DNA of 64,000 nt from an uncultured Phycisphaerales bacterium (GTDB taxonomy: Bacteria > Planctomycetota > Phycisphaerae > WQYP01): NCBI GenBank assembly GCA_963766775.1, contig CAVYBP010000006.1, positions 6,939-70,938 of the forward strand, written 5' to 3'. This document shows positions 1,786 to 48,490 of this stretch, piece by piece; positions within the stretch are counted from its first letter, which is position 1; each line of letters starts with the position of its first letter. The position numbers and the translations under genes are program-made. The notes under the pieces were generated by a model. That model was given only the letters and a program-made list of their open reading frames with translations, ran no database searches and was not told the DNA's origin.

Positions 1786-2027
1786 CCTCGCGAAACGGAT
1801 CGCTGGGCGGCCCAGGCCGCGTGGTCTTGCACAGGTACGGCCGCGCCTGCCAGGCCGCGCCCGCCTGCCGCCCTGCATTTCAGTGATGCGCGAGTCGTCA
1901 TCGCAGCACCGTACCCCGGGGCGCAGCGGTCGCAGGGATGGATCTGGGGGTGCCCGAGATGGGTCAGCGTCGTTAGCGCCGGGAGAGCGGCCCTTCCTCG
2001 GTGGGTGCTCGCCAGACGGGTGACGAT

Positions 2028-2921
2028 CTACTCGGAGGTGGTCGAGGGGCGCTCAGGTCGGGGTCGCTGCGCAGCGAGTCTGGTGAGGGCGCTGAGCAGC
2101 CGGTCCACCGAGTCTTCTGCGTGGTGGTGTGCGGCGAGCGCCCGGAGGGCGGGTTCGTTGGTCGGGTAGGCGTCTCGTTGGCCGGGCGGGAGCGCGATGG
2201 GGAGATCGTCGACCGGCCGCACGACGGTGATCGCGGCCTGGAGGTACTCCCGGTCCGGTGCGCGCAGCGGGCGGTCGCGCAGCACCCCCGCGATGTCTCC
2301 GTGGCGGCGGATCATCGCTGCCGCGGTCACCGCGCCGACGCCCTTGAGCCCGGGAAGTCCGTCGGAGGGGTCGCCGCGCAGGATCGCGAAGTCGGCGTAT
2401 CGACGGCCCGGGATCGCGTAGCGGCGCGTGATCTCGGTTTCGTCGATCACCGCCAGTCCTGACCGCTCCGGATACAGGACGCGCACGCGCGGATCCTCGA
2501 CGAGCGCGAACAGATCCCGGTCACCGCTGGCGATCTCGATGGTCCCGGGGGCGAGTCTGGTCAGGGTGGCGATCACGTCCTCGGCCTCGTGATCGGCGAC
2601 ACCAACGACGTCGATCCCGATGTGCTCAAGCAGCTGGCCGATCACCGGAAGGTCGGCGACCAGCCCGGGTGGAACCGGCTCAGAGACCCGGTGGGCCTTG
2701 TAGTCCGCGATCAGGTCCACTCGCCACTGGGGCCGCCATGCCCAGTCCTCGGCGATCACCAGCCGCCGCGGCCGGCGGTCGGCGACCAGCCGCGCCAGCC
2801 TGTCCAAGAAACCGCCGACCGCGTTCCCGTCGGTCCCCGAAACGCGCGCGCGGGCCAGCGCGCCGTAGTAGGCGCGGAAGATCAGGCTCGACCCATCGAT
2901 CAACAACCATTCGCAGGCCAT
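2028..2921 (-). CDS. 5'-3' exonuclease (FEN/Pol I N-terminal nuclease family)
   Basis: Intact 297-aa ORF. Motifs LIDGSSLIFRAYY, DYKAHR, GDRDL and the helix-3-turn-helix region PSDGLPGLKGVGAVTAA are typical of this family. Confidence 0.85.
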   Translation of the reverse strand: MACEWLLIDGSSLIFRAYYGALARARVSGTDGNAVGGFLDRLARLVADRRPRRLVIAEDWAWRPQWRVDLIADYKAHRVSEPVPPGLVADLPVIGQLLEHIGIDVVGVADHEAEDVIATLTRLAPGTIEIASGDRDLFALVEDPRVRVLYPERSGLAVIDETEITRRYAIPGRRYADFAILRGDPSDGLPGLKGVGAVTAAAMIRRHGDIAGVLRDRPLRAPDREYLQAAITVVRPVDDLPIALPPGQRDAYPTNEPALRALAAHHHAEDSVDRLLSALTRLAAQRPRPERPSTTSE

Positions 2922-3144
2922 CCCCGCGCGATTCTGCCGCAGCCGTCACGCCGGCCAGGCTCGCGCCATGCGACGTGCTCGGCAAATGGCAGACGGCGTG
3001 ATCCAACAGGACGGACGCCTCGGATAGCAAGCACTTCATGGGCTAGCCACCGTCGGAGGCGCGGCAGGCATCCGAACCTAGAACGGCCGCGCGGACCCGG
3101 AGCCGGTGATCCGCGCCCGACCTGGCGGCGTAACAAGGTGTGCG

Positions 3145-5396: not shown

Positions 5397-7245
5397 ATGA
5401 GACCACGGGTGATGGGCTGCCGGTTTGCGATCGGTCGCGCGGCTTGCGGCGTGTGCGCGTTGATTCTGTTGAGCGCGGTCTGGCTCGTTGCCGGCTCAGC
5501 CGTGGCTGCGGCGGCGACGGTGCAGAAGCAGGGTTACATCCCGATGGCCGACGGCACGCAGCTGGCGTACACGGTGGAGCTGCCCGCCGGCCACCGGCCG
5601 GTTTCCCGTGGCGCTGGCGTACGCCGGATACTGCGAGGGCAGCGACGCGCAGTGCAATGACGCGACGAACGCAAGCGCGCTGCTCGCCGCGGGCTACGCC
5701 GTGCTGGGAGTGAACATCCGCGGCACGGGCTGCTCCACGGGAACGTTCGATGCCTTCACTGCCCAGGAGTGGCGCGATGGTGCGGCGGCGATCGAGTGGG
5801 CCGCACGGCAGCCGTGGTCGACCGGACATATCGGCATGTTCGGCGATTCGTTTCCGGGAATCACGCAGCTCGGTGTCGCCGGGCTGCGGCCGCCACACCT
5901 GGACGCGATCGCTCCGTTTCAGGTGACCACCGATCTCTACCGCGACGTGGGCGACCCGGGAGGCATCACCAATACCGGTTTCGGCGCCTTCTGGGCGGGC
6001 GTCGACCAGCCTTTGGCCTCGTATGAAGGCGGCGTCGAGCGGACCGAGGAGAACGGCGACATGCGGTTGTGCCGAGGTCCACGGTGACCGATCTCGCGGA
6101 GGAGGGCTTCCACAACGTCGCCCTCGAGGGTCTCCAGCACCCGTACGACGACGCGTTCTGGCAGGCGCGTGAGCCCGGCGCCAACGCATCCAAGATCAAC
6201 GTCCCGGTGTTCGGCTGCCTGACCTGGCAGGACGACGAGGTCTCAAGCCGCTCGTCCTCGTATCTGAGCGGAGCTCGATCCGGCGCGCACGTGGGTCGTT
6301 GCCAGCAACGGCTACCACGCACAGTGCGAGATCTCCGCTCCGCAGATCACCGACGAGCTGGTCGCGTTCTTCAACCGGTTTGTGAAGGGCCAGGCCAACG
6401 GGTTCGAGCACACCCCCCACATCCAGCTCTGGCACGAAGCGACCGCGAACAGCGCCGGCGACGACGTGCCCAGCTGGGTCACGACGTTCCCCTCCTACTC
6501 GTCGATTCCGGCCCGGCCGCTCGCGCTCTACTTCCGATCTGACGGCGCACTGTCCCTCAGCCCGCCGAAGAGCCAGGACTCACCGGACCGCTACGCGTAT
6601 CCCGGCCCGGCCCTGGGCACCGAGAACGGCATCGTTTTCGGTCAGCACAACCTTCTGTGGAAGGGTGAGGAGCCGCCGGGCGCGTCCGTCGCGTACACGA
6701 CGCCGCCGCTGACCCGCGACTCCGAGTTCTTCGGCTCGGGCTCGGCCAACATCTGGCTGAGCTCGACCGCACCCGACACCGATCTCCAGATCACGCTCAC
6801 CGAGGTCCGCCCCGACGGGCAGGAGGTGTACGTCGCGCGCGGCTGGCTGCGCGCCTCCCACCGAGCCCTGGACCCGGCGCGCTCAACCGCGCTGGCGCCC
6901 TACCAGACCGACCAGCAGGCAGACGCCCGCCCGCTCGTGCCCGGAAGCCCCACCTACATGCGCGTCCAGCTTTGGCCGTTCGACTACGTCTTCCGCAAGG
7001 GATCGAGCATCCGCCTCTGGATCGACGCGCCCACCGGAGAGACCGGTGGCTGGTCCTTCGACTACACCAAGACCCCCGCGATCAACAGCATCTACGCGGA
7101 CGCCCAGCATCCATCGGCGATCGTCCTCGGGCACCTGCCGGGCGGCCACGCGCAAGCGCCGCTGCCGACCTGCGACACGCTCCTCAACCAGCCCTGCCGT
7201 CGAAACCTGACTCCCGTCCCGTCCGGAACGATGACGATCCGGTAG
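5397..7245 (+). CDS. CocE/NonD family hydrolase (S15 X-Pro dipeptidyl-peptidase-like), secreted; frameshifted as written
   Basis: The ATG at 5397 follows GGGAG and is followed by a signal peptide. Family-typical pieces are spread over the frames of ORFs 5346, 5488, 6069 and 6382: GYIPMADGTQLAYTVELP, GVNIRGTGCSTG, WRDGAAAIEW, GMFGDSFPG, VFGCLTWQDDEV. The long C-terminal beta-sandwich part includes GWLRASHRALD and IRLWIDAP. Confidence 0.85.
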
Positions 7246-16352: not shown

Positions 16353-16506
16353 CGCCGGCGTTATGCGGAAGGCGCCCGATGCCGATCGCTTGGGGGGCTC
16401 TCGCTTCGGGTAGTCCGCCGTCTCGCCACTCTGTTCGGTCTGTCGGGAGAGGATTGGATGAGCCACGAGCGATGCAGAACCCATCGCCCAGGCCGCGGCC
16501 GCGCGG

Positions 16507-17797
16507 GTGGCACGGAAGCTCGCGCGGGTGATGGCGGTCCTCGTCGCCTCCGCGCTGGCGCTGACGCCTGCGGCCGCGACGGCCGACCAACGCGGGGCGC
16601 CAAACGTCGCATGTCCGTCGCGCATCACCGCGTCGTCCGGCACCACCCAACCACAGTCGGCGCCATCACAAGCGCTCTCGACGCCACGCCCATGGCACGG
16701 AAGGGGTCGCGTCCGTGTGATCTGTACGCGAAGGCCGGGACCCCGTGCGTGGCTGCGTTCAGCTCGACCCGGGCGCTGTTCGCCGGCTACGCGGGACCGC
16801 TGTATGAGGTCAAGCGTGCGTCGGACGGCACGACGCTGAACATCGGCGTGCTCGCCCGCGGCGGGTACGCGAACGCGGCAGCGCAGGACGCGTTCTGTGC
16901 CGGCACGAGCTGCGTCGTGGAGAAGATCTATGACCAGACCGCCCACCACAACGATCTGGTCCCGCAGGGGCCGACGACAGCGGTCTACAGCAACACGACC
17001 TACTCGCATGACCCCGTCTCCGCGAGCGCGCTGCCGATCCTCGCCGGCGGCCATCCGGTCTACGGCTTGAAGTTCCAGAGCGGCTCACCGCACGGGCCTG
17101 CCGTGCCCCACGGCCGCCACGTGCATCGAAAATCGCGGGGCGGCCTACAACAACGGTCACGTCCGGGCCAAGGGGGTCGCGGTCAACGGACAGGCCGAGA
17201 GCGTCTATGGCGTCTTCGGCGGCACCTACTCGGGAAGCGACTGCTGCTTTGACTTCGGCAACTCCGAGGTAGCCGGAACCGACAACGGCAACGGCACGAT
17301 GGACGCGCTGAACTTCAGCCGGGACTGCTGGGACGCCTGCGGGCCCGGCGGGGGCCCGTGGGTTCAGGCCGACCTCGAGAACGGCATGTTCATGACCGGC
17401 ACCACGACGCCGACGCCGGAGGCCCCCACCGCCTTCATCGGAGGGTCGTTCCAATCCGGCGACGGATGGTGCTGCGCCGCGACATCTCACAACCTCGCGA
17501 TGCCCTACCCGTTCGTCACCGGCATGCTCGACAACCCCGGCGCCAGGACGTTCACGATCAAGGGCGCCAACGCCACCACCGGCGGACTCACGACGTTCTA
17601 CGGCGGACCCACCCCTCCCGGCAAGGGATACTCGCCGATGCGCCAGGAAGGAGCCATCATCCTCGGCTCAGGCGGCGACCAGGGCACCACCGACGGCGAG
17701 TTCTTCGAGGGCGTGATGACCGATCGGCGTGCCTCCCACCGCCACCGAGGCCGCCGTGCAGGCCAACATCGTCGGGGTCGGCTACAAGCTGCGATAG
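16507..17797 (+). CDS. GH54-type alpha-L-arabinofuranosidase B catalytic-domain protein, secreted; frameshifted as written
   Basis: Signal peptide MARKLARVMAVLVASALALTPAAA. Then PCDLYAKAGTPCVAAFSSTRALFAGYAGPLYEVKRASDGTT..CVVEKIYDQT..., CCFDFGN, GPWVQADLENGMF and PMRQEGAIILGSGGDQGTTDGEFFEGVMT. These parallel the fungal AbfB catalytic domain from memory. There are at least 3 frame changes. Confidence 0.7.
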
Positions 17798-18050
17798 CTC
17801 GCGATCCGGCGGGGCCGGCGCTGATGCGCTAGGCGCGCTGACCGCGCACATGGGTTCACCCCGCTTCGGGCGGCAGCCCGGCAGCGGAAGCGGCAGCGCA
17901 GCGGGGTGGGCCCCCCGGCGGGGATGAGTCCAGCGTCCAGGGATGTGAGCGTCTAGCCTGCCGGGATCGGGGTGGCGGTCGTCGGTCGGCGACATTGCGC
18001 TGATGATCGGCTGCTGCTGGAGAGGCTTCACCAGGAGAGAGGGGCTGCTC

Positions 18051-18163: not shown

Positions 18164-19662
18164 GACGTCGAGGTTGTCCGGATCGTCGTGGAACTTCGTT
18201 GGCGATCCTCACGGATTGACGGTCACACGGTAACGGGCTCGCGGGTCTCGTGATGGTCGCGGTTGTTGTTGGCGATGAGGATGCTGTGACGCTCGATCGC
18301 GATCACGAGCTTGGCGAGGTCGCGGTAGCCGATGATCCTGCGGAACTGCTGCTCGGCGACGAGCATCCCGGCGGCGGTCCAGCGCTTGCGCATGTCACCG
18401 TCCTGCCAGCGCTTGACGTTGCGCTGCGTGTACCGGACGATCTCGATCATCGACTCGCACGGGTTCGTCGAGCACAGCGTCTTTGAGAGCTGCCCATCGA
18501 TCCCGAGCCGCATCAGCGTCAGCGTGTCGTGCATCCCTTCGCGGAGTGAGGCGGCGGCGTCGGGCCAGGTGCGGTCGAGGTCTGAGGCGAGCAGCTCGAG
18601 TCGCTCGTGCGCGAGGTGATGGTCGCTCAGCGCCCACGCGCCGCGGATCCGGACGAGGACCTTGGGCCGGTCTCGCTCGGGCAGCAGGTCGGTGACGTTG
18701 CGTTCTTTGTGGCGGTGGCAGCGATGCACGAGCGCGTGCTCGCCGAACACGTCCTTGATCGCCTTGCGCAGCGCCTTGCCGCCGTCGATCACGAACAGGA
18801 TCCCCTGCTCAGGATCGAGGCCGCGGTCGACGAGGTCTGAGAGCAGCATCCCGACCAGCGTCGCGTTCTCCGTCGAGCCTTCCCACAGCCCGAGCGGGAT
18901 CTTCACTCCCTCGGTCGAGATCCCGAGCGCGACGACGTGCGTGCGCTCAGCGATCTCGAGCCCGTCGAGCATCATCACCGCCAGGCGCGTGTCGTGCAGC
19001 CGGCGCGCCATCAGCTCTGAGAGCGCGGTGCGAGTCCGCTCGATGAACAGCTCTGACACCGTCGACTTGCCCGTCGAGCTCGCTTCCTGCTCGACGTCCT
19101 CGCCGACCGGCTCGCCGACGACCGCGAACTTGCGGGTCGAGACGCCGGCGAGCACCCGGTCCATCACCGCCCGGGTCAACGGGTCACGATCAGCGAAGTA
19201 CTCGTAGCTGGCAACGGGCAGCTCGTGCTCGTCGTCGGCCGTCCGGATCCGCGGACGACTGACCGAGACGCGCCGGCCGCCGAGCGTCATCGACCCGTCC
19301 TCGTGGCCGTGACGCTTCGCCGTCCGGTCGGGGTTGTGCTTGTGCTTCGGGCCGACGACCTCGTCGACTTCGCGCTCCATCAACTGATGCACGACGCCCA
19401 GGCCGAGACCGACGCTCAGCGCGAGCAGTCCCTCCCTCGCTGCCCCGACGAGCTCGCCGAGCGCCTCCTGAATCTCCGCAGGCAGCGGCAACTCCGACGC
19501 CTGCGTGGTCGTGACGACCTGCGGTCCGGATACCTTCTTCATGGCGGTCCTCCTGTCCTGACGGACTTGGTTTGGCAACCACGAACGCTCCCAACAAGAG
19601 CGGACGAGGCGGGAGGACCGCCACTCAAAGTTCTACGAGGTTCCGGACAACCTCGTGACGTC
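18164..19662 (-). mobile_element. IS256-family insertion sequence (~1.5 kb)
   Basis: Imperfect terminal inverted repeats: left gacgtcgaggttgtccggatcgtcgtggaactt (18164-18196), and right 19628-19662, whose reverse complement is gacgtcacgaggttgtccggaacctcgtagaactt. They enclose one mutator-type transposase gene. No target-site duplication could be confirmed by eye. Confidence 0.8.
18223..19542 (-). CDS. IS256-family (Mutator-type) transposase
   Basis: Intact ORF (18223..19578; likely start MKKVSG at 19542). Family-typical stretches are ..VMMLDGLEIAERTHVVALGISTEGVKIPLGLWEG.., FVIDGGKALRKAI and VHRCHRHKERNV. Confidence 0.9.
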   Translation of the reverse strand: MKKVSGPQVVTTTQASELPLPAEIQEALGELVGAAREGLLALSVGLGLGVVHQLMEREVDEVVGPKHKHNPDRTAKRHGHEDGSMTLGGRRVSVSRPRIRTADDEHELPVASYEYFADRDPLTRAVMDRVLAGVSTRKFAVVGEPVGEDVEQEASSTGKSTVSELFIERTRTALSELMARRLHDTRLAVMMLDGLEIAERTHVVALGISTEGVKIPLGLWEGSTENATLVGMLLSDLVDRGLDPEQGILFVIDGGKALRKAIKDVFGEHALVHRCHRHKERNVTDLLPERDRPKVLVRIRGAWALSDHHLAHERLELLASDLDRTWPDAAASLREGMHDTLTLMRLGIDGQLSKTLCSTNPCESMIEIVRYTQRNVKRWQDGDMRKRWTAAGMLVAEQQFRRIIGYRDLAKLVIAIERHSILIANNNRDHHETREPVTV

Positions 19663-30158: not shown

Positions 30159-31324
30159 CCCCAACTCTGCAGTCCTCTGCGTCGGCCGTCCGCGTCGAGG
30201 GTGTGACCAAGCGCTTCGGCGCGACGGTCGCGCTCGCGGGGGTCGACCTCGAGGTGGCCGAGGGGACCGTGTTCGGGCTGCTCGGGCCGAACGGGGCCGG
30301 GAAGACCACGCTGGTTCGAGTGCTCGCGACCCTGCTGACGCCCGACGCGGGGCGCGCCGAGGTGTTCGGGCGCGACGTGGTGCACGAGGCCGCGGCGGTT
30401 CGCCAGCTGCTCGGTCTCACCGGACAGTTCGCCGCGGTCGACGAGATCCTCACCGGGCGGGAGAACCTGCAGATGTTCGGCCGGCTGTTCGACCTCTCGC
30501 CGGCCGAGGCGCGCCGGCGGACCGGCGAGCTGCTGGAGCGCTTCGAACTGGCCGACGCCGCCGACCGACCGGCACGCACGTACTCCGGAGGGATGCGCCG
30601 CCGGCTCGACCTCGCCTCGAGCCTGCTCACGCGTCCGCGGATCCTGTTTCTCGACGAGCCGACCACCGGGCTCGATCCGCGCAGCCGCAACGAGATCTGG
30701 GCGATCGTGCGCGAGCTCGTCCGCGAGGGGACGACGCTCCTGCTGACGACCCAGTACCTCGAGGAGGCCGACCAGCTCGCCGACCGGATCGCGGTGATCG
30801 ATCACGGGCGGGTGATCGCCCAGGGCACAGGCAACGAGCTCAAGGATCAGGTCGGCGGGCAGATCCTCGAGGTCGAGCTGACCAGCGCCGCCACGTCGCG
30901 ACGAGGCGCTGTCGGTGCTGGCCGGGTGGGCTGCGGCGACCCAGAGCCGGGCGAGCGGCTGGACCAGCTCACGCTTCCGGCGCCGCGCGATGGCCTGGAG
31001 CTGATCGAGGACGCCGCCTCGGCGCTGCGTCATGCGGGGATCGGCGTGAGCGACCTCGGGCTGCGCCGGCCGACGCTCGACGACGTGTTCCTGCAGCTCA
31101 CCGGCGCGCCGCCGAGCGAGGACGGCGCCGGCCCGGAGGCGTCCGCAGGGCGGCGCCGGCCGCGTCCGCGACGCGCGCGCAGCGCCGCAGCCGACCGTCG
31201 CGCGAGGCGGTCGCTGCGCGTTGCACCGCCCCTCGCTGCAGCGGGCTGCGCTCGGCCGTCACCGACGCGCGCGTGGTCACCGGCCGCAACCTGCGCCACT
31301 TCATCCGCCAGCCGCAGCTGCTGA
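30155..31324 (+). CDS. ABC transporter ATP-binding protein (DrrA/daunorubicin-resistance type)
   Basis: The TTG at 30155 overlaps the acylase stop (TTGA). Motifs: GLLGPNGAGKTT (Walker A), YSGGMRRRLDLA (signature), ILFLDEPTTGLD (Walker B), LLTTQYLEEA. The literal stop at 31322-31324 overlaps the permease gene by ~100 nt, so the true 3' end is unresolved. Confidence 0.8.
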   Translation: MTPTLQSSASAVRVEGVTKRFGATVALAGVDLEVAEGTVFGLLGPNGAGKTTLVRVLATLLTPDAGRAEVFGRDVVHEAAAVRQLLGLTGQFAAVDEILTGRENLQMFGRLFDLSPAEARRRTGELLERFELADAADRPARTYSGGMRRRLDLASSLLTRPRILFLDEPTTGLDPRSRNEIWAIVRELVREGTTLLLTTQYLEEADQLADRIAVIDHGRVIAQGTGNELKDQVGGQILEVELTSAATSRRGAVGAGRVGCGDPEPGERLDQLTLPAPRDGLELIEDAASALRHAGIGVSDLGLRRPTLDDVFLQLTGAPPSEDGAGPEASAGRRRPRPRRARSAAADRRARRSLRVAPPLAAAGCARPSPTRAWSPAATCATSSASRSC

Positions 31325-32010
31325 TCTTCTCGACCATCCAGCCGATCATGTTCGTGCTGCTGTTCGCCTACGTGTTCGGCGGCGCGGTGCGCGGCTCGCT
31401 GCACGGCGTCAAGTACATCGACTTCCTGCTGCCCGGCATCTTCGTGCAGTCGGTGGCATTCCGCGCGACCCAGACCGCGGTCGGCCTCTCCGAGGACCTG
31501 GAGCGCGGGGTGGTGGATCGCTTCCGCTCGATGCCGATGACGCGATCGGCCGTGCTGATCGGGCGCACGGTGGCCGACCTCGTGCGCAACGTCCTGATCA
31601 TCGGGCTGATGATCGTCGTGGGCTACCTGATCGGCTTTCGCTTCCACGCCGGGCTGCTGCAAGCGCTGGCCTCCGTGGCCATCGTCAGCGCCTTCGGCTT
31701 CGCGCTGAGCTGGATCTTCGCGTTCGTCGCGCTGACCGTGCGCGGCGCCGAGGCGGCCCAGTCGGCCGGCTTCGTCGTGATCTTCCCGCTGGTGTTCGCC
31801 AGCTCGGTGTTCGTGCCGGTCTCGAGCATGCCGCACTGGCTGCAGGCCTTCGCGAAGGTGAGCCCGGTGACGCTGACGGCGAACACCGCGCGCTCCTATG
31901 CGCTTCACGGCGGCGTGCCGAGCTCGCTTGGAGGAGCGGCGGCCTGGATCGCCGGACTGTTGGTCGTGTTCATCCCGCTGTGCGTGTGGCGATACCGGCG
32001 GATGAGCTGA
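31221..32010 (+). CDS. ABC-2 type transporter permease (DrrB-like); one early frameshift as written
   Basis: ..VVTGRNLRHFIRQPQLLIFSTIQPIMFVLLFAYVFGGAV.. followed by six hydrophobic helices to 32010. The candidate TTG start at 31221 is in another frame, with the change near 31255. Confidence 0.75.
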
Positions 32011-32092: not shown

Positions 32093-32296
32093 ATGACCAG
32101 GATCGAGTCGGTGCCGCCGGGGTCGCGACGCGTTGCGAGGTGTCCGGGTTCGGTCCTGGCCGTCCTGGCCGTCCTGGCGGTCCTGGCCATCGCGACGATT
32201 GCCGGCGCCACCTCGCGGGCGTGGGCGACCGCTCCGACGGCCACGTTCGGCAAGGGGACCGTCGGTGGTGGCGCGGATCCAATCGGCTCTGACTAG
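32093..32296 (+). CDS. Small TM-segment ORF; the last gene-like feature of the GC-rich half
   Basis: MTRIESVPPGSRRVARCPGSVLAVLAVLAVLAIATIAGATSRAWA... It contains the 9-bp x4 repeat. Its stop lies in the CTAG at the composition breakpoint. Confidence 0.3.
   Translation: MTRIESVPPGSRRVARCPGSVLAVLAVLAVLAIATIAGATSRAWATAPTATFGKGTVGGGADPIGSD
32153..32188 (+). repeat. 9-bp tandem repeat gtcctggc(c/g) x4
   Basis: gtcctggcc gtcctggcc gtcctggcg gtcctggcc, encoding (VLA)n within the small ORF. Confidence 0.95.
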
Positions 32297-32757
32297 AAGG
32301 TGCCGTAGAGGGCGTATTGAGGTTTGATGCGGGTATCGCCCGGAGCCGCGGTGCCCGGCGTGCCGCCGAGTTCTTCATTCTGCAGTTTTTCAAGCGTCGC
32401 TTTTTCTTCAACGAACAGCAGGCGGTCGCGCGTCGGTGCCTGATTGAGAAGACCGGCAAGGCGGGCAGCATAGATATCCATATTCCGGCCGGGCATGTCT
32501 TCCGTCTTGTTCTGCACGCCTTTTACGACAATCGTGACACGATATGGGCTCTGCGTGATCTCCGAAATGGTGAGCATGTCAGGAGCCATCCGATCGGTCA
32601 TTTCTCGCAAATCACGGCTCTGCAGTCCGTGCTCATTGGACACAACTTTATCCATATCCGGCCGCATTTCCGCCCGGCTCTTTTCGCCACAGCCGACCAC
32701 CGCCATCCCAAGGACCGCCGCCAAGCAACCGACAGCCAATCTGTTCACAATGCTCAT
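32293..32757 (-). CDS. LpoB/COG3417-like lipoprotein, 3'-truncated at the breakpoint
   Basis: Lipobox LGMAVVGCG. The domain pattern ..RVTIVVKGVQNKTED..IYAARLAGLLNQ..LLFVEE.. ends at PQYALYGTF*, where related proteins continue for roughly 35-45 more residues (from memory of E. coli LpoB). Confidence 0.55.
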   Translation of the reverse strand: MSIVNRLAVGCLAAVLGMAVVGCGEKSRAEMRPDMDKVVSNEHGLQSRDLREMTDRMAPDMLTISEITQSPYRVTIVVKGVQNKTEDMPGRNMDIYAARLAGLLNQAPTRDRLLFVEEKATLEKLQNEELGGTPGTAAPGDTRIKPQYALYGTF

Positions 32758-32859
32758 GATTCCTCCGATTTGTTTTAAACGTGGAAATTTTCGCTCGTAT
32801 GGTCACTAGATTACTGCCGAGGTGGAAGGTTAGTCAAAGGGATCGCACGGGCGGAAAGA

Positions 32860-34047
32860 ATGGAGACCGCAATGCGTTGGAGCGCTCAAACGGCTACAAT
32901 TGCTCGGATCATGAAACAAAAACCTGCCATTGGTGGAAAAAAGAAACCGTCCTCAAAAGAAGATGCAGCCGCCGCGAAGCCCCCGGTGGAGGTTATTCCC
33001 GAGGCCGTCGCTGTGGAAGCTGTGGACGTTGCCGTCGCGGAAGTCGCGGATGAAGAAGTCCTGCAGCAGATGCAATTCGACATCAAGCACGACTTGCAGA
33101 AGCGCGTCGATCTGTACCTGCGCGATCGTCTTCCCGATATGTCGCGCGCCATGCTGCAGAAAATGGTGAAAGCGGGCGGGGTGATGGTGAATGGCCGTGC
33201 GGCAAAAAGCTCGACATTATTGCGGGCGGGAGATGTGGTGAACGTGGCGTTGCCGAAAATTGTCCCGCTCGAATCCTTGCCGGAGAATATTCCGCTCGAC
33301 ATCGTGCACGAGGATGCGCAATTTATTGCCGTGAACAAGCAGGCCGGGCTGATCGTCCACCCTGCTCGCGGACACTGGAGCGGCACGCTGATTAACGCGA
33401 TTCTCTGGCATGCCCAAGAAACCCAGGGAACCCTCTCCGTCGGTTCAGACCCCTGGCGCCCGGGCATTATTCACCGGCTCGACCGCGACACCACCGGCCT
33501 TATCCTTATCGCGAAAACCGATGAGGCCCATTGGCGCCTCGCCGGCCAGTTTGAACGCCGCACCATCAAGAAAACCTACCTCGCCCTCGTCCACGGCGAA
33601 ATGGACCTCGACAGTGACCTCATCGACGCCCCCCTTGCCGTCCATCCTAAAATTCGCGAACGCTATGCCGTTCGCACCGACATCGGCAAACCGGCCCAGA
33701 CGGTCTATGTCGTCAAGGAACGCTTCAAAGGCTATACCCTGCTCGAACTCCTCCCCAAGACCGGACGCACGCATCAGCTCCGCGTGCATTGTGCCCACGT
33801 CGGCCATCCGATCGTCGGCGACGTCGCTTACGGAGGCAAGGCGATCACGCTTCGCGATATCGAAGGCCAAAAATCCAAGACCGCCGGCAGCGCGAGTGAA
33901 GAGCCGCTGATCGAACGTCAGGCCCTGCACGCACATCGGCTTCAATTCGTCCATCCCACGCAGTTCACGCGCATGCACCTCGAGGCCGCGATGCCCCCGG
34001 ACATGGTGCACATTTGCGAGCTTCTGCGGATTCATCGAAAACGGTGA
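32860..34047 (+). CDS. rluD: RluA/RluD-family 23S rRNA pseudouridine synthase with an S4 domain and an acidic/Lys-rich N-terminal extension
   Basis: Intact ORF. S4-like region RVDLYLRDRLPDMSRAMLQKMVKAGGVMVNG, catalytic HRLDRDTTGLILIAKT, and TGRTHQLRVH. The start could instead be the ATG at 32911. Confidence 0.85.
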   Translation: METAMRWSAQTATIARIMKQKPAIGGKKKPSSKEDAAAAKPPVEVIPEAVAVEAVDVAVAEVADEEVLQQMQFDIKHDLQKRVDLYLRDRLPDMSRAMLQKMVKAGGVMVNGRAAKSSTLLRAGDVVNVALPKIVPLESLPENIPLDIVHEDAQFIAVNKQAGLIVHPARGHWSGTLINAILWHAQETQGTLSVGSDPWRPGIIHRLDRDTTGLILIAKTDEAHWRLAGQFERRTIKKTYLALVHGEMDLDSDLIDAPLAVHPKIRERYAVRTDIGKPAQTVYVVKERFKGYTLLELLPKTGRTHQLRVHCAHVGHPIVGDVAYGGKAITLRDIEGQKSKTAGSASEEPLIERQALHAHRLQFVHPTQFTRMHLEAAMPPDMVHICELLRIHRKR

Positions 34048-34059
34048 GCGGAATTCGTT

Positions 34060-35295
34060 TTGTTCGCGACACGCGATTGTTACAATGCGGCCCGCACAAG
34101 CGCTTCGGGGACCGTGCGCTTTGATTCTTGGAGTGCCTGCTTTTCTCAATCGGCCGGAATGCCGGGAAAGCAGTGCTGGAGCCGCCCTTCGGTGAGTGAA
34201 CCTGCGACATCAGCGGAGTTGATCCGTACGCCGCTTCAGTTGTATCGGCTGCCCGTGGACAAGGCGGGGCCGGCGGTGGCGTTTCTGCATGCGCGGTCGC
34301 AGGGCGTCATGGATTTGATCGCGCACTTCTGGGAGCGATTGGCGCAGACCCCCCCACTCCAGAGAAACGATCTTCACCTGATCGTCGCCGCCTCCAATGA
34401 ATTGTCGAATGAACATATAGACATACAAAATTTAGACGGCAGGATTTCCGGCGCGATGCTGTACGTGCCCAAGGCGCATTGCGCGGATGTGCTGGCACTC
34501 GATCCGGTGACGGCGTCGGCCTTCTGTATGTACATCCGGCATCGAGGGGTTGCTGCGATAAGGTCCGATAATGGAAAGACGCATTCCGCTTCTACAGATA
34601 CGGTTGAGCCCGCACCTGCGGAAAAGGATGGGGTATTAGATGATAATACCTTGTCAGTGCTTGATTTATCTTCTCAAGTGAAGGGGGTGGCACCGGCATC
34701 CGATTTGTCATCGATTGCGTCGGTGCCCGCTATCACCGCCGAGCAGATTCCCATCGATTTTATTACGGGGCCGTCGGAGACGATTGAATGGATGGTCCCA
34801 GTGCTTTTACCACTGGTGCATCGGAAGAGTCCCGCCCGGCGGCTGGTCAATTCCGTAATGCAACTGCCGGAAAACGTACCATGTGCAAGCGACAGTAATG
34901 TGCGACTCGCGAAAGAATCAGATGTGCCCACATTGAATCGTTGGCGAAAACAATATCGTGAGGAGCGGGGCATTTTGTTCAACGCGGATCTTGACGCATG
35001 GGTCGATGCGGGCCGCGTGTTCGTCTATGAACACGACAAGCAAGTCGTTGCGATTGCGAAGTTTGATCTGGAACTGCATCGGTTGATTGAGATCGGGGGG
35101 GTCTATACTTTTCCGGAGTTCCGCCAGCAAGGTTTCGGTGGGAAGATCGTGAGCGACTTGGCGTGTCGTATCCGGGAGGCAGGGAAAATTCCTACCTTGC
35201 AGGTGGATGAGTCGAATGCCCCCGCAATGAATCTCTATCATAGCGCAGGCTGGCTGCCCATGGGAAAATTATCCCGAGTCTGGCTCACCGGATAG
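34060..35295 (+). CDS. GNAT-family N-acetyltransferase with a ~260-aa uncharacterised N-terminal region
   Basis: Intact ORF. The C-terminal ~130 aa read ..VFVYEHDKQVVAIAKFDLELHRLIEIGGVYTFPEFRQQGFGGKIVSDLACRI..NAPAMNLYHSAGW (acetyl-CoA binding Q/RxxGxG/A pattern). The start is uncertain, and the gene is lower in GC than its neighbours. Confidence 0.7.
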   Translation: MFATRDCYNAARTSASGTVRFDSWSACFSQSAGMPGKQCWSRPSVSEPATSAELIRTPLQLYRLPVDKAGPAVAFLHARSQGVMDLIAHFWERLAQTPPLQRNDLHLIVAASNELSNEHIDIQNLDGRISGAMLYVPKAHCADVLALDPVTASAFCMYIRHRGVAAIRSDNGKTHSASTDTVEPAPAEKDGVLDDNTLSVLDLSSQVKGVAPASDLSSIASVPAITAEQIPIDFITGPSETIEWMVPVLLPLVHRKSPARRLVNSVMQLPENVPCASDSNVRLAKESDVPTLNRWRKQYREERGILFNADLDAWVDAGRVFVYEHDKQVVAIAKFDLELHRLIEIGGVYTFPEFRQQGFGGKIVSDLACRIREAGKIPTLQVDESNAPAMNLYHSAGWLPMGKLSRVWLTG

Positions 35296-35299
35296 GCAA

Positions 35300-35315
35300 T
35301 GTTCCACGTGGAACT
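35300..35315. promoter_or_regulatory. parS-like site 1: tGTTCCACGTGGAACt
   Basis: Perfect 14-bp palindrome GTTCCACGTGGAAC (35301-35314), about 90 bp upstream of parB. It differs from the canonical GTTTCACGTGAAAC by one symmetric position per half-site. Confidence 0.7.
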
Positions 35316-35403: not shown

Positions 35404-36351
35404 ATGACCACCAAAGACCGCCCCCGCCTTGGTCGTGGCCTCAAGTCGCTCATCTCTTCCCCCGTGATGATGCAACATCCTCAAGCCTCCTCCCAGCCAA
35501 CCTCCTCCAGCGACGCTGACCTCAAAGATCGGCTGACCCAAGTCGAAATCACCTCCATCCAACCCAACCCCCATCAGCCCCGTGCGGCCATGGACCCCAT
35601 CGCACTCCGCGAACTCGCCGCCTCCATCAAAGCCTCCGGCATCCTCCAACCCGTCATTCTCCGTCCTTCCTCCCCCATCGACGGCAAGCCCTCGTACCAA
35701 CTCGTCGCCGGCCATCGCCGCACCGAAGCCGCCAAACTCGCGGGCCTCACCCACGTTCCCGCCATCATCCGCCAGGATTCCACCGATGAACGCCAAGCCG
35801 AATGGGCACTCGTCGAAAATATCCAACGCCAGGACCTCAACGCCATCGAACGCGCCAAGGCCTACCGCTCCTACGTCGATAAATTCCACTTCACCCACGC
35901 ACAAGCCGCTGAACGTCTCGGTGAAGACCGCACCACCATCAGCAACTTCCTACGCCTCTTGGACCTCAACCCCGGCGTGCAAGACCTCGTCGGCCGAGGC
36001 ATCCTCTCCGCAGGCCACGCCAAAGTCCTCGCTGGCGTGACCGATCCCGCCCAACAGGATGCCTACGCCAACCGCGTCGTCACCGACGGCCTGAGCGTTC
36101 GAAAACTCGAAGAGCTTATCACCGCCCCGCCGGCCGCGCTGGAGTCCGAAGAAGACACCACCACCGTCTCCGCCCATACCCGTACCCTCATCGCCAAAAG
36201 CCCCCATGTCGTTGAACTGGAACAAGACCTCTCCCGAAAACTCGGCACAAAACTCCGCATCTTCCCCAGCAAAAAGAAAAATACCGGAAAAATCATCATC
36301 CAATACTTCTCCCTTGATGAATTCGACCGAATTGTGGAAAAGTTTAGCTAG
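35404..36351 (+). CDS. parB: Chromosome partitioning protein ParB (Spo0J)
   Basis: Intact 315-aa ORF. Motifs: IQPNPHQPR, GILQPVILRP, LVAGHRRTEAAKLAG (the GxxRxxA arginine patch), ENIQRQDLN, and the HTH region HAQAAERLGEDRTTISNFLRLL. Confidence 0.9.
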   Translation: MTTKDRPRLGRGLKSLISSPVMMQHPQASSQPTSSSDADLKDRLTQVEITSIQPNPHQPRAAMDPIALRELAASIKASGILQPVILRPSSPIDGKPSYQLVAGHRRTEAAKLAGLTHVPAIIRQDSTDERQAEWALVENIQRQDLNAIERAKAYRSYVDKFHFTHAQAAERLGEDRTTISNFLRLLDLNPGVQDLVGRGILSAGHAKVLAGVTDPAQQDAYANRVVTDGLSVRKLEELITAPPAALESEEDTTTVSAHTRTLIAKSPHVVELEQDLSRKLGTKLRIFPSKKKNTGKIIIQYFSLDEFDRIVEKFS

Positions 36352-36437: not shown

Positions 36438-37557
36438 ATGCGTAAAACCCCACGCAAAACCATCATCCCTCCCAAAAAGCCGAGGAAGCACCCGGTTGCC
36501 CCACCCCCCCCCCCCGCACTCCCCGCCGCGACCTCCCGACGCCGCTCCAACAACGTCGAAGCCCTCCCCTCCACCGGCCCCGGCCATGCGTCCGCCGCGG
36601 GCCCCAAGTCCGGCGTCGTCATCGTCGGCTCCCTCAACATGGACCTCGTCGTCCGCACCGAAGTCATGCCCACCCCGGGCCAAACCGTCATGGGTCAGGA
36701 CCTCCTCGAAACCCCCGGCGGCAAGGGTGCCAACCAGGCCACCGCCGCCGGCCGCCTCTGGAATAAACGCTCACCCGGTGCCAAACTCATCGGCCGCATC
36801 GGCGAAGATGTCTACGGCACCCACATGCTCGCCGCACTCGAAAAAGCAAAAGTGGACACCACCTCCGTCCTCAAAACCCGGGGCATCCCCACCGGCACCG
36901 CGCATGATCATCGTCGACCGCCACGGCGAAAACGCCATCGTCGTCGCTGACGGCGCCAATCGCCGCCTCTCCGCCACCGACCTCCTCGCCCAGCGAAAAA
37001 CCATCGAAACCTCCACCGTCCTGATCGCACAACTCGAAATCCCCCACGACACCGTCGCCTGCGCCTTCGCCCTCGCCAAACGCTCCAACGTCCTGACCAT
37101 CCTCGACCCCGCGCCCGCCCCTCCAGAAGGCCTTCCCGAATCACTCTACCATGTAGATATCTTGACCCCTAATCAGTCAGAAGCGCAGCTCCTCACCGGA
37201 ATGCCCGTCCGCAACGTGGAGGAAGCCCGCCGCGCCGCCGAACGACTCCTCCTCCGGGGCACCCGCATCATCATTTTCAAAATGGGATCCCAGGGCGCCG
37301 TCATCGTCCAATACGATGGCCGCCACCAACCCCTCGCCCAACACATCACCGGCTTCCGCGTCCCCGTCGTCGACACCACCGCCGCCGGCGACGCCTTCAC
37401 CGGCGCCCTCGCCGTCGGACTCGCCGAAGCCATGCCCCTCCCCCAGGCCGTCCGCTTCGCCAACGCCGCCGGCGCCCTGGCCTGCATGAAGTCCGGAGCC
37501 GCCGCCTCCATCCCCACCCGCGCCGAAGTAGAAGCCTTCATGAAGGAACGCCAATGA
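36438..37557 (+). CDS. rbsK: Ribokinase (PfkB family); one frameshift near 36900 as written
   Basis: VVIVGSLNMDLVVR..PGQTV.G..ETPGGKGANQA in the frame of ORF 36381. Then MIIVDRHGENAIVV.., DTTAAGDAF.GAL and NAAGALAC in the frame of ORF 36496. The Pro-rich N-terminal extension contains a C12 run, so the start is uncertain. Confidence 0.85.
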
Positions 37558-41366: not shown

Positions 41367-42928
41367 TCAACGCTTGAAAGAGCTTAACCCAACCCTACTT
41401 GGACGCCGTGAGACGGAGCAAATAATCCGCGCAGGCGCGGTGAAGTTAAACTCGCCCGCCTTGGCCGGTTTTAACAGTTCCTTCTTCATGCGCCACGTGT
41501 CGATCGCCTCGACCGTGTAGTCCCGCTCGCCTGCAAGCTGCAACTTGGCCGATGCTTCTTTCAGCGCATAGATCAAATACACGCTCCCCGGCTTCGACAA
41601 AACAAAAACATTCGGATCAAGGCGCACCGGCGTCATCTCCGAAAACGGCAACGCCTCCATCATCTTCCGCAAAAATGCGATCCGTGGCGGACTCTCACCA
41701 TGCAGCACCCCGCCCTTCGACCACCATAAAATATCGTGCGGATCAAGCAACGTTTCACCATGCCCGACATAGCCCCCGCAGATCGTGCCGATCCAGAATT
41801 GACGCACCATCTCCGCAGCCGTCAACTTCCCCCAGCTATTCGGAATGTTCCCCTCATAACGGCATTCATCGACCACAATCGGCTTCTGAAACTTCTCCCG
41901 CCATGCAATCACCTGCGTCAAGTCGCTTTTCTGAATGCTCGCATGCGTCACCCACGGCTTGGTGTGATCGTACATCTTTGACGCCTGGTGAATGCTGCGC
42001 GCTGCCGATCGAATGCATCCTCCTTTTGAAGGATCGAAAAAAACCGGTCAAAGTCCGCAACGGTTTTGTTCCCTCGCTGGCCCTTGCGCAGCGGCGGAAT
42101 CATGAAGTCATACTCATTCGCCAGCGACCACCACACATTCCGATACGCCCCCAGCCGCGCGATCGCATACCGCAGATACCGATCATCGCTCGCGGAATCC
42201 ATTTCCGAAAAACCCCACCGATCATACGGATGAAAAAGAATCAGATCCGCCTCAATGCCGAGCTTCTGAAGGTCTTTCACCCGCCGCTCGAGATGCTGCC
42301 AATTCGCCGGATCGAATTGCGTGAGATCGAACTTCCCGTCCGGCTTGCGCACGAAAGGATAGTTCACCGGGTCATTCGTGTTGTATGTGTACGACTTCGG
42401 AAAGATGCACATCCGCATCTTGTTGAACGGCGACGTGGCCAACGTCTTCAACGTCTGCTCTTCGAGATCATCCGGCTGATGCGTCCACGCATAGCACGTC
42501 GTCCCCACCTGAAAATACGGCGTGCCGTCGGCATACGCGAAATGAAACGTGTCATGCACCCGCACCGGCCCATGATTCGACCCGGTCGGTGCCGTCACAT
42601 GGACCTGCCCGCTCTTCCCCTCCAGCTCCGCCGCGTTGCTGCTGGTGCGATAGGTCCAATCCCCATGCGTCGGCGGCGAAAATCGAATGCGATAAGTCCC
42701 CCCACCATCGTAAAAACCCGGAACCGTCAACGACTCGCGCCCGCTGCTGAATTGCGCCGACAACTTCACATCCACAAACGGATTCCCCCCCGTCGGCCCC
42801 GGCAGCGACACCTCAAACAAGTCCCACTGTTCCACTGTCGCCGGTGCCGCTGCCAGCACCCGGCCCGGCACCACCCCAGCGATCACACCGCACAAAATAA
42901 AAACAACCCGAAACCATTTCATCAACAT
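41367..42928 (-). CDS. DUF5060 + DUF4038 (GH-like TIM barrel) + C-terminal domain protein, secreted; frameshift near 41985 as written
   Basis: Signal MLMKWFRVVFILCGVIAG.., then VEQWDLFEVSL..GNPFVDVKL.A.F (DUF5060-like), HFAYADGTPYFQVGTTCYAW (DUF4038-like), WWSLANEYD. The C-terminal 202 aa are in ORF 41367..41975. Confidence 0.7.
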
Positions 42929-42960
42929 ACAAACCCTCCGCGCACGGGTTTCAAACTCGT

Positions 42961-45900
42961 TCAACCAATCTCCACCAGCAGGTCCCCCGCCGCTACCAGA
43001 TTCCCCGGCTGCACATAAATTTTACCGACCTTCCCATCGCGCGGAGAATACACCGCCGTCTCCATCTTCATCGCCTCAATTGACAGCAGCTTCCCTCCCT
43101 TCTGAATCGACTGGCCAAGCGAAACGTTCACCGAAGTCACCTTGCCCGGCATCGGCGCGCCGACATGGCTCGCGTTCCCCGCGTCGGCCTTCGCGCGTTC
43201 CACTTTCGTCACCGCCACGCTTCCGGTCGGGAACCTTCACTTCTCGCGGTTGGCCGTTCAGCTCGAAGAAAACCGTCACCATCCCGTCCGCATCCGGATC
43301 CCCTGCCGTTAGAAACTTCACCATCAGCGTCTTGCCCGGCTCAATCTCAATCGGCACTTCCTGATACGCCTGCAACCCATAAAAGAACACCGGCGTCGGT
43401 ATCACTGAAACGTCGCCATAAATCTTCCGGAAACGCTCGAACTCCAAAAACACCTGCGGATACATCAAATAACTCGCCAGATCCGTCTCCGTCACTTCCC
43501 GATGAACCTTCTCCGAAAGCTCCTCCCGCGTTTTTTCCAGATTCACCTTCGGCAGCGTCGCCCCCGGCCGCCCCTTCAGCGGTTTTTCCTTCCCCAACAC
43601 AATCTTCTGCAGCTCCTTCGGGAACCCGCCCGTCGGCTGCCCAATATCGCCCCGGAAAAATTCAATCACGCTCTTGGGAAACGCCAGATGCACGATTCGG
43701 ATCAAGCACATCCGCCGGCTTCAGATTATTAGTCACCATGAAGATCGCCATGTCGCCCACGATCTTCGACGACGGCGTCACCTTCACATGTCGCCAAACA
43801 ACTGGTTCACATGCGCATACATGTCCGCAACTTCGTTCCATCGCGTCTCAAGCCCCAGCGACTTCGACTGCACCCGCAAGTTCGTGTATTGCCCGCCCGG
43901 CATTTCATGCTGATAAACGCTCGCCGTCGGCGCCAGCATCCCCTCCTCAAACGGCGAATAAAACCGCCGCACCGCCTTCCCAGTAATCACTGTACGCACT
44001 CAACGTCTCTTCGCTCAGCCCCGTATCCCGCGGCGTATTTCGCAACGCCGCCACCACCGCATTCATGTTCGGCTGGCTCGTCATCCCCGACATCGACGAC
44101 ACCGCGCAATCCACAATATTCACCCCCGCCTCCGCCGCCATCAGATACGCACCCGCCTGCATCCCCGCCGTGTCGTGCGTGTGAAAATGGATCGGCACTC
44201 CCACCTCCTCCCGCAGCGCCTTCACCAGCTTCCGCGCCGCCAGCGGCTTGAGCAGCCCCGCCATATCCTTGATCGCCAGAATGTGCGTCCCCATCCTCTC
44301 CAATTCTTTCGCCAGCTTCACATAATACTTCAGCGAATACTTGTCCCGCTTCGGATCGAGAATATCCCCCGTGTAACAGATCGCCGCCTCGCAAATCGCA
44401 TCCGTCTCCAGCACCGCCTCCATCGCCACCTTCATGTTCTCCGTCCAGTTCAGACTGTCGAAGATGCGAAAGACATCCATCCCCTGCTGCCGCCGCCAGC
44501 TTCGCGAATTCCTTCACCACGTTGTCCGGATAATTCGTGTACCCCAGCGCATTGCTCGCGCGGAACAACATCTGAAACAGCACATTCGGCATCTCGCTTC
44601 CGCAGCTGCTCAGACGCTCCCACGGATCCTCGCTGCAGAAACCGCAACGTCGTATCAAACGTCGCCCCGCCCCACATCTCCAGCGAAAACAGTTCCGACA
44701 GATTCTGGCTGCATAAACGGCCGCCGCGCCAGCATGTCCACCGTGCGAACCCGCGTCGCCAGCAGACTCTGATGCGCATCCCGCATCGTCGTGTCCGTGA
44801 TAAGCAGCTTCTTCTGCTTCAAAATCCACTGCGAAAATTTCTTCGCACCCAGTTCTTTCAACTTATCGCGTGAACCCGTCGGCAGGGCGGGGCGCGGATG
44901 ACTCAGGAACCAGCAGGCCGCGGCGGCGTCATCACCGTGATATCCGGCTTCTTCTTCATCTCCGGACGACCATTCACAATCACATCGCCAATGTACGTCA
45001 GCAGCCGCGTCGCCCGATCCCGCCGCTGCGGAAACTTAAACAGCGCCGGCGTCGTATCAATGAAACGTCGTCGTCGTATGCCCCGACCGAAAATCCGGAT
45101 GCGCCACCAGATTCTGCAAAAACGGAATGTTCGTCTTCACACCCGCGAATCCGAAACTCCGCCAACGCCCGCTGCGTCCGCGCAATCACCTCATCAAATG
45201 TGCTCCCAAAACAAGTCAGCTTCACCAGCAGCGAATCAAAGTACGGCGTGATCACCGCCCCCGCATACGCCGTGCCCCCATCCAGCCGCACCCCATACCC
45301 CGCCGGCGAACGATACGACGTAATCCGCCCATAATCCGGCGTGAAATTGTTCGCCGGATCCTCCGACGTGATCCGCGCACTGCAACGCCACCCCGCGAAA
45401 CGTAATCTCACTCCTGCTGCGGCAAATTGATCGGCTCTTCATGCAGATCGTAGCCCATCGCCACCCGAATCTGCGACTTCACCAGATCCATCCCCGTGAT
45501 CAATCTCCGTCACCGTGTGCTCAACCTGAATCCGCGGATTCACCTCAATAAAGAAAAACTCGTTCGTCTCCCCATCCACCAGAAATTCCACCGTCCCCGC
45601 ATTCCGATAATTCACCTGCCGCCCAATCTTCAGCGCCGCTTCGCAAATGCTCCGCCGCACCTCCAGCGGCAAACTCACCGCCGGCGCAAGCTCCACCACC
45701 TTCTGATGCCGCCGCTGTACCGAGCAATCCCGCTCAAACAGATGCACCAGATTGCCATGCGAATCGCCCAGCAGTTGCACCTCAATATGCTTCGCCCGCT
45801 GGATGTACCGTTCCAGGAAAACCTCCCCCTTCCCAAACGCCGCGCCCGCCTCCCGCGATGCCTCCGCCAATTTTTCCTGCAGCTCCCCCATCTCCTTCAC

Positions 45901-46732: not shown

Positions 46733-48490
46733 TCACGCCGACCCACCGTGCGCCCGGCGCGTTCGCATCGCTCCCATCACTCGCCGCCGGCCGGTCCGAA
46801 GCCGCCGGACGTTCAGCCGCGCGGGCCGAGCCTCTGGCGCCGCTGCCGGACGCTCCACAGGCGCGGGAGCCGGCGCAGGCCGTTCAACCCGCGGCTCAAT
46901 CGGGGCCGGCGCTGCTCGTTCAATCGGAGCCGCTGCCGGACGTTCCACAGGAACCGCCACCTGACGCGGCCGCTCCGCCGCACTGGGCACTGGACGCTCT
47001 GTTGGCACCGCCGGCTCGGGTCGCTGCACCGGCGCCGGACGAGCTACCGGGGCTGCACGCTCCACAGGTGCCGGCGCTGTCCGTTCTAAAGGCATCGGCC
47101 GAGCACGTTCCGCCGGCACCGGTTCAACCCGCTGCGGAGCCGCCTGTTCTCGAACCCTCTCTCCTGACGAAGGCTCCGCTTGCGGCCTGGCTTGCCCGGC
47201 CGGAATCGGCTTTTCAACCTGCGGTGCCCGCGCCGGTTCAACCGGACGGTACTTAATCGGCGCCGGTGCCGGGGGTGGCAAGGGACGCGCACCGGGTTGC
47301 TCCGTCCGTGCCGGTGAATTCTCACGCCCACGCGGATCAACCGCCGGCTGCGCCGTGCTCCGCAGGACGCTCCGCGCCACGCGAGTTTTTCGGCGGTGCC
47401 ACACGCGGATCGCTCGGAGGCAGCGGCCGCCGCTCCCCCGCGCCCGCCCTCACATTACTCGGCTGAACCCCATGCGGACGCTCCGCTGAAAACTGCGGAC
47501 GCGGTATCGGCCGATCCCGATCATGTTCCCACTGCCGCGCCCGACCATAATCCGGATGCCGCCAATCATCATTCCACCGCACATCCCGATCGATCCGTCG
47601 GCTGTGCCAATCCACACCAAGGTCCAGCCATACGCCCGCACCATATCCCTCCGAGAACGTCACACACTGCTCCGGCTCATAATCCCGCCTCACATACACC
47701 ACATCAGGATCGTAATACGGCACATAAATCACGTTCGGCTGCGCGGGCAGCACTTCAACATAACCATTCTCCACGATCACCTGCTGCTGCTGCGTGCTCA
47801 CCAATGTCTGCATTCCTGCGCCTCAACACGCAATCGCTGGATGGAATTCATCACATCCTGCGGCTGCGTCGCGAACGCCGCACCGAGCGTCGCCGTCCAA
47901 CCCGGCTGGCTTGCGAGCATGTTCACCACCGACGGGTAATGCACCAGCGCCTTCACCGAAGGATCCCGCGCTTCGCCGTTGATGTCGTACTCCGAACGCG
48001 CCGTCGAGTATTGCAGCCATTGCGCCGCACTCCCGATGTCCTGCGGGTAAGTCGCCGCCGCAAGCACCTGCGATAACAGTGGATCGGGATAGAGCGCGAT
48101 AGGCCCCAGCACCTGATCCAACTGCTGATTATTTAAAAGCGCCGGCTGCGCGGCCTGATAAACAGGTGCCGCCCCGGGCGCATATCCCTGGGGCGCCGCC
48201 GCATACCCAGACGGCGTATACCCCTGTGCCGGCGCATATTGCGGGGTAGGGGGGGGGGACTGTGCCGGGGTATAGACCTGTGGCGAGCCATAACCCTGCG
48301 GCGGATACGCCTGCGGAGCCGGCGTATACTGCGGCGCAGCCGAGTAAACCGGTACGGGTCTGTAGACCGGAGCGTCATACCGTCTGGACGCATATCCGTC
48401 ATCGCGATACGTAGTGGCCGTGCAGCTAGTGCCTGCCGCGACAACTGCCGCCATAAGAATCGCGCCAATCGTTTTATTCATACCGTTCAT
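46733..48490 (-). CDS. DUF3300-domain protein with a long Pro/Ala/Arg-rich C-terminal region; frameshifted as written
   Basis: The ATG at 48488-48490 opens MNGMNKTIGAILMAAVVAAGTSC. A Pro/Tyr-rich linker follows, then LDQVLGPIALYPDPLLSQVLAAATYPQDI..ALVHYPSVV (DUF3300). After a change near 47810 comes QTLVSTQQQQVIVENGYVEVLPAQPNVIYVPYYDP. The tail is in ORF 46733..47404. Confidence 0.75.

Follow-up and report, generated by a model that had tools for sequence, protein, structure and literature searches.

The stretch of DNA analysed here (64,000 nucleotides; hereafter, the window) raises the question of whether its two halves, which meet in a CTAG shared by two convergent open reading frames, come from the same organism and, if they do not, how they came to be joined. 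A preliminary description had placed an abrupt break at about 32,293-32,297 and had proposed that two unrelated genomes are joined there. The evidence from composition, nearest relatives, gene truncation and gene order makes it very probable that the window is part of an inter-phylum chimeric contig that was joined within a few bases of 32,296 and that, as we infer, had a technical origin in sequencing or assembly.

Composition and relatives of the two halves

Per-kb values of GC content lie at 0.66-0.72 in the first 32 kb and at 0.55-0.65 in the remaining 32 kb. A maximum-likelihood search places a single change point of G+C at 32,276-32,370, with a log-likelihood 280 units above that of a model with no change, and the drop in mean GC from 0.689 to 0.600 is confined to about 100 bases around 32,296. 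In confident open reading frames GC3 is ~0.85 on the left versus ~0.69 on the right, and the fractions of individual codons differ widely (left versus right: GAA, 0.14 and 0.61; AAA, 0.05 and 0.53; ATC, 0.97 and 0.58; TTC, 0.90 and 0.43). Leave-one-out likelihoods of tetranucleotides in 500-base windows assign all 64 windows of the left half to the left type and 62 of the 63 windows of the right half to the right type; in 200-base windows the sign flips at ~32,300, positions 32,101-32,300 being still of the left type. The GC skew of the plus strand is close to zero in the left half (-0.013) and strong in the right half (-0.264); elsewhere it amounts to 0.18-0.30 in Phycisphaerae relatives and averages 0.015 in 20-kb Solirubrobacterales loci. 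The profiles of GC, GC3 and tetranucleotides that had been suggested as checks all change sharply at the junction, as do codon usage and GC skew, and the abrupt break first described is borne out as the only composition switch in the window, not one of several.

The sole 500-base window of the right half that scores as left type (47,001-47,500; LLR +23) lies within a GC-rich stretch (0.64-0.65) directly upstream of the DUF3300 gene, and is probably a low-complexity G/P-rich region, not a second join. The many partial Pfam hits of the left half had led to the suspicion that it is a mosaic of many fragments; this reading was rejected because the partial genes are frameshifted, otherwise complete genes and the composition is uniform.

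The left block (1-32,295), in which GC skew is close to zero, is DNA of Solirubrobacterales type (Actinomycetota). Its 5'-3' exonuclease (2,028-2,921) matches 80 loci among species-representative genomes at 66-94% amino acid identity, and every one of them bears the title Solirubrobacteraceae, Solirubrobacterales or Actinomycetota. Four left proteins share 90%-identity clusters with proteins from soil metagenomes; the named members of left-protein clusters are one Solirubrobacteraceae MAG and one AcrR member labelled Chloroflexota, the latter on a contig of 2,954 bp. Pfam confirms the PKD, DUF6351, DrrAB-like (ABC_tran and ABC2_membrane) and IS256 (Transposase_mut) families that had been recognised on this side by eye. 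The accompanying claim that recognised core housekeeping genes occur on the right side only needs correction, as the left block also has genes of housekeeping type, namely those for the 5'-3' exonuclease, for an acyltransferase and for an ABC1 kinase. The transposase gene nearest to the junction, at a distance of 13 kb, belongs to the IS256 family (Transposase_mut); it lies on the minus strand at 18,223-19,578, has 451 codons and is seemingly intact.

At the DNA level, the left half matches its relatives only in the exonuclease gene (1,828-3,013) and in a plus-strand drrA/drrB-like ABC transporter cassette (30,170-32,010; Pfam ABC_tran and ABC2_membrane), which comprises the last recognisable genes of the left block. 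Soil metagenome contigs match the cassette with identities of up to 93% in amino acids and 88% in nucleotides; the DNA similarity of the cassette to 80 metagenome loci extends from ~30,170 to ~32,010, and the downstream genes differ there. The drrAB loci were considered as a route to the native continuation of the left side and were rejected for this use: the matches stop at 32,010, with other genes downstream. Left-half synteny proved uninformative as a test, its relatives lacking synteny among themselves as well. The exonuclease gene and the drrAB cassette share ~75-92% nucleotide identity across dozens of species-level genomes of Solirubrobacterales (loci L005-L164) and sit in unrelated context in each genome, one MAG possessing two copies (L118 and L119); this suggests cassette-like mobility or an unusually fluid gene order in the Solirubrobacterales.

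The right block (32,296-64,000) is DNA of Phycisphaerae type (Planctomycetota): the organism-named relatives of its ParB and LpoB-like proteins are all 'Phycisphaerae bacterium', and the best non-self identities are 77% for ParB and 83% for LpoB. The ParB, DUF3300, pyruvate carboxylase, T2SSE and T2SSF (GspE/F) assignments made earlier were also confirmed. The nearest relatives of the window switch from one phylum to another along with its composition, and the two halves, taken from the outset to be of unrelated lineage, differ in lineage and codon usage alike.

The right half possesses an extreme strand asymmetry, whatever the orientation of its genes. Measured per kb on the plus strand between 35,300 and 64,000, GC skew ranges from -0.2 to -0.53 (-0.26 for the right block as a whole), and from 56 to 64 kb the plus strand contains G at 0.18 and C at 0.44; third-position plus-strand skew is -0.4 to -0.84, with values of -0.69 for parB, -0.68 for an ABC ATPase gene and -0.74 to -0.84 for minus-strand genes. 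The preliminary description of right-hand coding strands as G-rich was correct only in part: C predominates over G on the plus strand in either gene orientation, which leaves minus-strand genes G-rich but the plus-strand parB, pfkB and ABC ATPase genes C-rich. This skew is far beyond the bacterial norm. Four related contigs (L001, L002, L004 and L165) share a skew that amounts to 0.18-0.30 in stretches of 10-20 kb and that may have either sign when lpoB is taken as the reference. The asymmetry of the right half looks like a replication-strand mutational bias; no title or abstract found in the literature on Phycisphaerae and GC skew appears to address it. The first 3 kb of the right half (32,296-35,300; lpoB, rluD and GNAT) have almost zero skew, with third-position values of -0.16 to +0.23 versus -0.4 to -0.7 from parB onward; lpoB and rluD of L001 are strongly skewed, unlike those of the window. 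The low-skew stretch may mark a transition in skew, or else the site of a recent rearrangement beside parB.

Genes and gene order at the junction

Immediately to the right of the break, a minus-strand gene (32,293-32,757) encodes an LpoB-like lipoprotein, the signal peptide of which is of the lipoprotein type and includes the lipobox cysteine (lipobox …AVVGCG; N-terminus MSIVNRLAVGCLAAVLGMAVVGCG, of which G22 and C23 are invariant across homologues). Its product has 154 amino acids versus 186-208 in ~60 homologues. The closest homologues (76-84% identity), which are full-length and carry PF13036 (LpoB), run 37 residues past …YALYGTF (FSMDNGKTTYYLCQFKLTSLLTGAEVWSGQYEVRTLN), and the missing C-terminus of 37 (up to 39) residues includes 12 nearly invariant columns. 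Pfam yields no match to the 154-residue stump at E<=0.01, its PF13036 domain being incomplete. The gene, with 154 codons present and 37 missing, is cut after codon 153 at the very base where composition switches; alignment to homologues here agrees with the loss of 35-45 residues at the 3' end that had been estimated beforehand.

Contigs found via lpoB homologues carry the locus intact in four relatives. The order TPR gene-lpoB2-lpoB is kept in L001, L002 and L165 and partly in L004, and on the other side of lpoB L001 and L165 have a pseudouridine synthase, GNAT, parB and a pfkB kinase. Between 32,860 and 37,557 the window follows the order of L001, L165 and, in part, L004, with plus-strand genes recognised by Pfam as an rluD-like pseudouridine synthase (32,860-34,047), GNAT (34,060-35,295), parB (35,404-36,351) and a pfkB kinase (36,496-37,557), and its DNA aligns collinearly with that of L001. 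Nowhere in the 64-kb window, the left block of which runs off the window start, is there a remainder of lpoB, an lpoB2 or the TPR gene. The conserved gene order is broken inside lpoB at the same base as the composition change. Similarity to Phycisphaerae relatives in blastn and tblastn comparisons stops at 32,295-32,297, with 32,296 as the last base of right-hand homology. Beyond the junction, on its left side, similarity to the remaining part of lpoB is no greater than for shuffled sequence. Candidate residual matches there ('TCAG' and 'GGAT', from a MAFFT alignment) were rejected on the same comparison.

On the left side, the last open reading frame is a plus-strand orphan of 67 codons (32,093-32,296), the TAG of which occupies 32,294-32,296, while the minus-strand lipoprotein frame ends with TAG on 32,293-32,295; these coordinates verify the earlier observation that both convergent frames stop within one CTAG (32,293-32,296). 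The region of the orphan has left-type tetranucleotides, and its GC3 of 0.83 in its own frame is equalled in the antisense frame, so the coding strand is not settled by GC3. The orphan is probably the 5' stump of a secreted-protein gene of the left genome because its N-terminus resembles a signal peptide; because it has no homologues (none among 1.84 billion representatives), we can only infer that it is truncated. A 9-base tandem repeat (GTCCTGGCC, 4 units; 32,153-32,188) encodes the VLA-VLA-VLA-VLA hydrophobic core of this signal-peptide-like N-terminus. The shared CTAG is best read as chance; that the truncated lpoB frame should meet a stop right at the join has a chance of a few per cent by a rough estimate, uncomputed and prompted by a post hoc observation.

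The two sides meet bluntly, and neither microhomology nor any other shared sequence is detectable between them. There are no tRNA genes within the 64 kb, no meaningful repeat pair flanks the junction, and no integrase, att-like repeat or IS is present at the border; the 50-base string across the junction is absent from GTDB species-representative genomes. These features bear on the proposal that the join is real biology, in which at least 32 kb of Solirubrobacterales DNA was transferred very recently by illegitimate recombination into a Phycisphaerae lpoB gene, or the reverse. The window does resemble a horizontally acquired genomic island in having a block of foreign composition beside native genes and an IS256-family transposase inside that block, and the differing contexts of the left cassettes among Solirubrobacterales genomes hint at actinobacterial mobility. 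Unlike an island, the window has a border devoid of tRNA, integrase, att-like or direct repeats and IS, its nearest transposase being 13 kb off; its foreign block is at least 32 kb long and consists of genes of another phylum that look like ordinary chromosomal ones, including the non-mobile functions of the exonuclease, acyltransferase and ABC1 kinase; donor composition and codon usage are unameliorated over all 32 kb; and the conserved gene that is cut has lost its remainder and its neighbours lpoB2 and the TPR gene, which do not reappear in the window, whereas the locus is intact in the four relatives. Inter-genome chimeras in metagenome assemblies are far commoner than inter-phylum transfers this large, and we consider a transfer extremely improbable. 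Composition, taxonomy, truncation, loss of synteny and the lack of integration marks all support the original judgement that the window contains an assembly chimera rather than an acquired island.

Deposited record and origin of the join

Exact proteins from both halves are recorded on an NCBI/ENA contig of 775,687 bp: P0073, P0088, P0094 and P0099 from the left, and ParB (P0072) and the 154-residue lipoprotein (P0001) from the right. The length of 775,687 bp recorded for both sides indicates one and the same contig, and since that single public contig carries the exact proteins of both halves, the join is present in the deposited assembly and did not arise when the window was cut. A further contig of mixed taxonomy was briefly suspected because the left-type locus L006 has the same length, 19,637 bp, as the contig that carries the right-type proteins P0008 and P0109. 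This was rejected: these are different records, and L006 is without right-type genes.

Frames are broken on both sides of the junction. A 609-residue peptidase (PepX; 5,412-7,242) is in four pieces with three frame changes, arabinofuranosidase and apiosidase-like genes (16,458-17,832; 41,367-42,964) are split, and pyruvate carboxylase (pyc; 43.0-46.5 kb) is in at least 10 pieces across all three frames in a stop-to-stop listing. These breaks point to an indel-rich long-read consensus. They are unevenly distributed: close to broken genes there are unbroken ones, such as those for DUF6351, ParB and a sodium:solute symporter. The nearest named relatives, judged by the exonuclease, are Microflora Danica MAGs, which were made with Nanopore reads, metaFlye and one Medaka round (PMC12313526). 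The contig of the window presumably comes from a Nanopore/Flye-type assembly as well.

A later step could in principle have produced the same record: two contigs that shared a bin, of which one was a contaminant, might have been pasted together without a spacer after assembly and before deposition. This would be compatible with a blunt join free of detectable microhomology, with two genes cut as at contig ends and with a join that is already in the deposited record, and the window is like the pseudo-chromosomes made of concatenated contigs in having unrelated ends side by side and stop codons at the joint. Such steps, however, normally insert an N run or a six-frame stop linker. Unlike pseudo-chromosomes of that kind, the window contains 0 N bases and its joint has no recognisable linker but a single CTAG, which supplies stops in 2 of 6 frames, or 3 of 6 with the adjacent TGA at 32,290-32,292; the adapter and linker sequences that were compared score no better against the joint than against shuffled sequence. 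Furthermore, the pipeline of the closest public MAGs, which is presumably also that of this contig, includes no such step (PMC12313526). Concatenation after assembly is in our estimation very unlikely. The presence of the join in the deposit favours a misjoin by the assembler or in a chimeric read over later concatenation, a distinction that sequence alone cannot make.

Most likely, two molecules were fused during sequencing or assembly, one from a soil Solirubrobacterales bacterium (Actinomycetota), which would have contributed bases 1 to ~32,295, and one from a Phycisphaerae bacterium (Planctomycetota), which would have contributed bases 32,296-64,000. The long-read metagenome assembler would then have accepted either a long read that was itself chimeric or an overlap that was false, and bridged it into one contig. 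The join cuts the lpoB-like gene of the Phycisphaerae side after codon 153 and probably also cuts a secreted-protein gene of the Solirubrobacterales side after codon 67, and each broken frame would read into foreign bases and by chance meet a stop in the same CTAG. Such a fusion would be technical rather than cellular.

Consequences for the record and for comparative analysis

The window is like inter-genome chimeric contigs in its abrupt switch of composition and taxon, its cut genes, its lack of integration machinery and its error-prone assembly. Nothing essential sets it apart from them, the unusual features here being the base-exact blunt join and the shared CTAG stop. Tools such as GUNC (Orakov et al. 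2021, cited in PMC12313526) deal with chimeric contigs of this kind in metagenome assemblies and MAGs.

There is no biological novelty in the junction, and the value of the finding is practical, not biological. Reading of the raw sequence alone had placed the chimeric join within a few bases. Public protein collections already list the 154-residue 'lipoprotein' like any genuine gene product, and the public genome that holds the 775,687-bp contig includes at least 32 kb from another phylum and should be split or flagged. Any argument across 32.3 kb from operon structure, synteny, genomic islands or horizontal transfer would be false.
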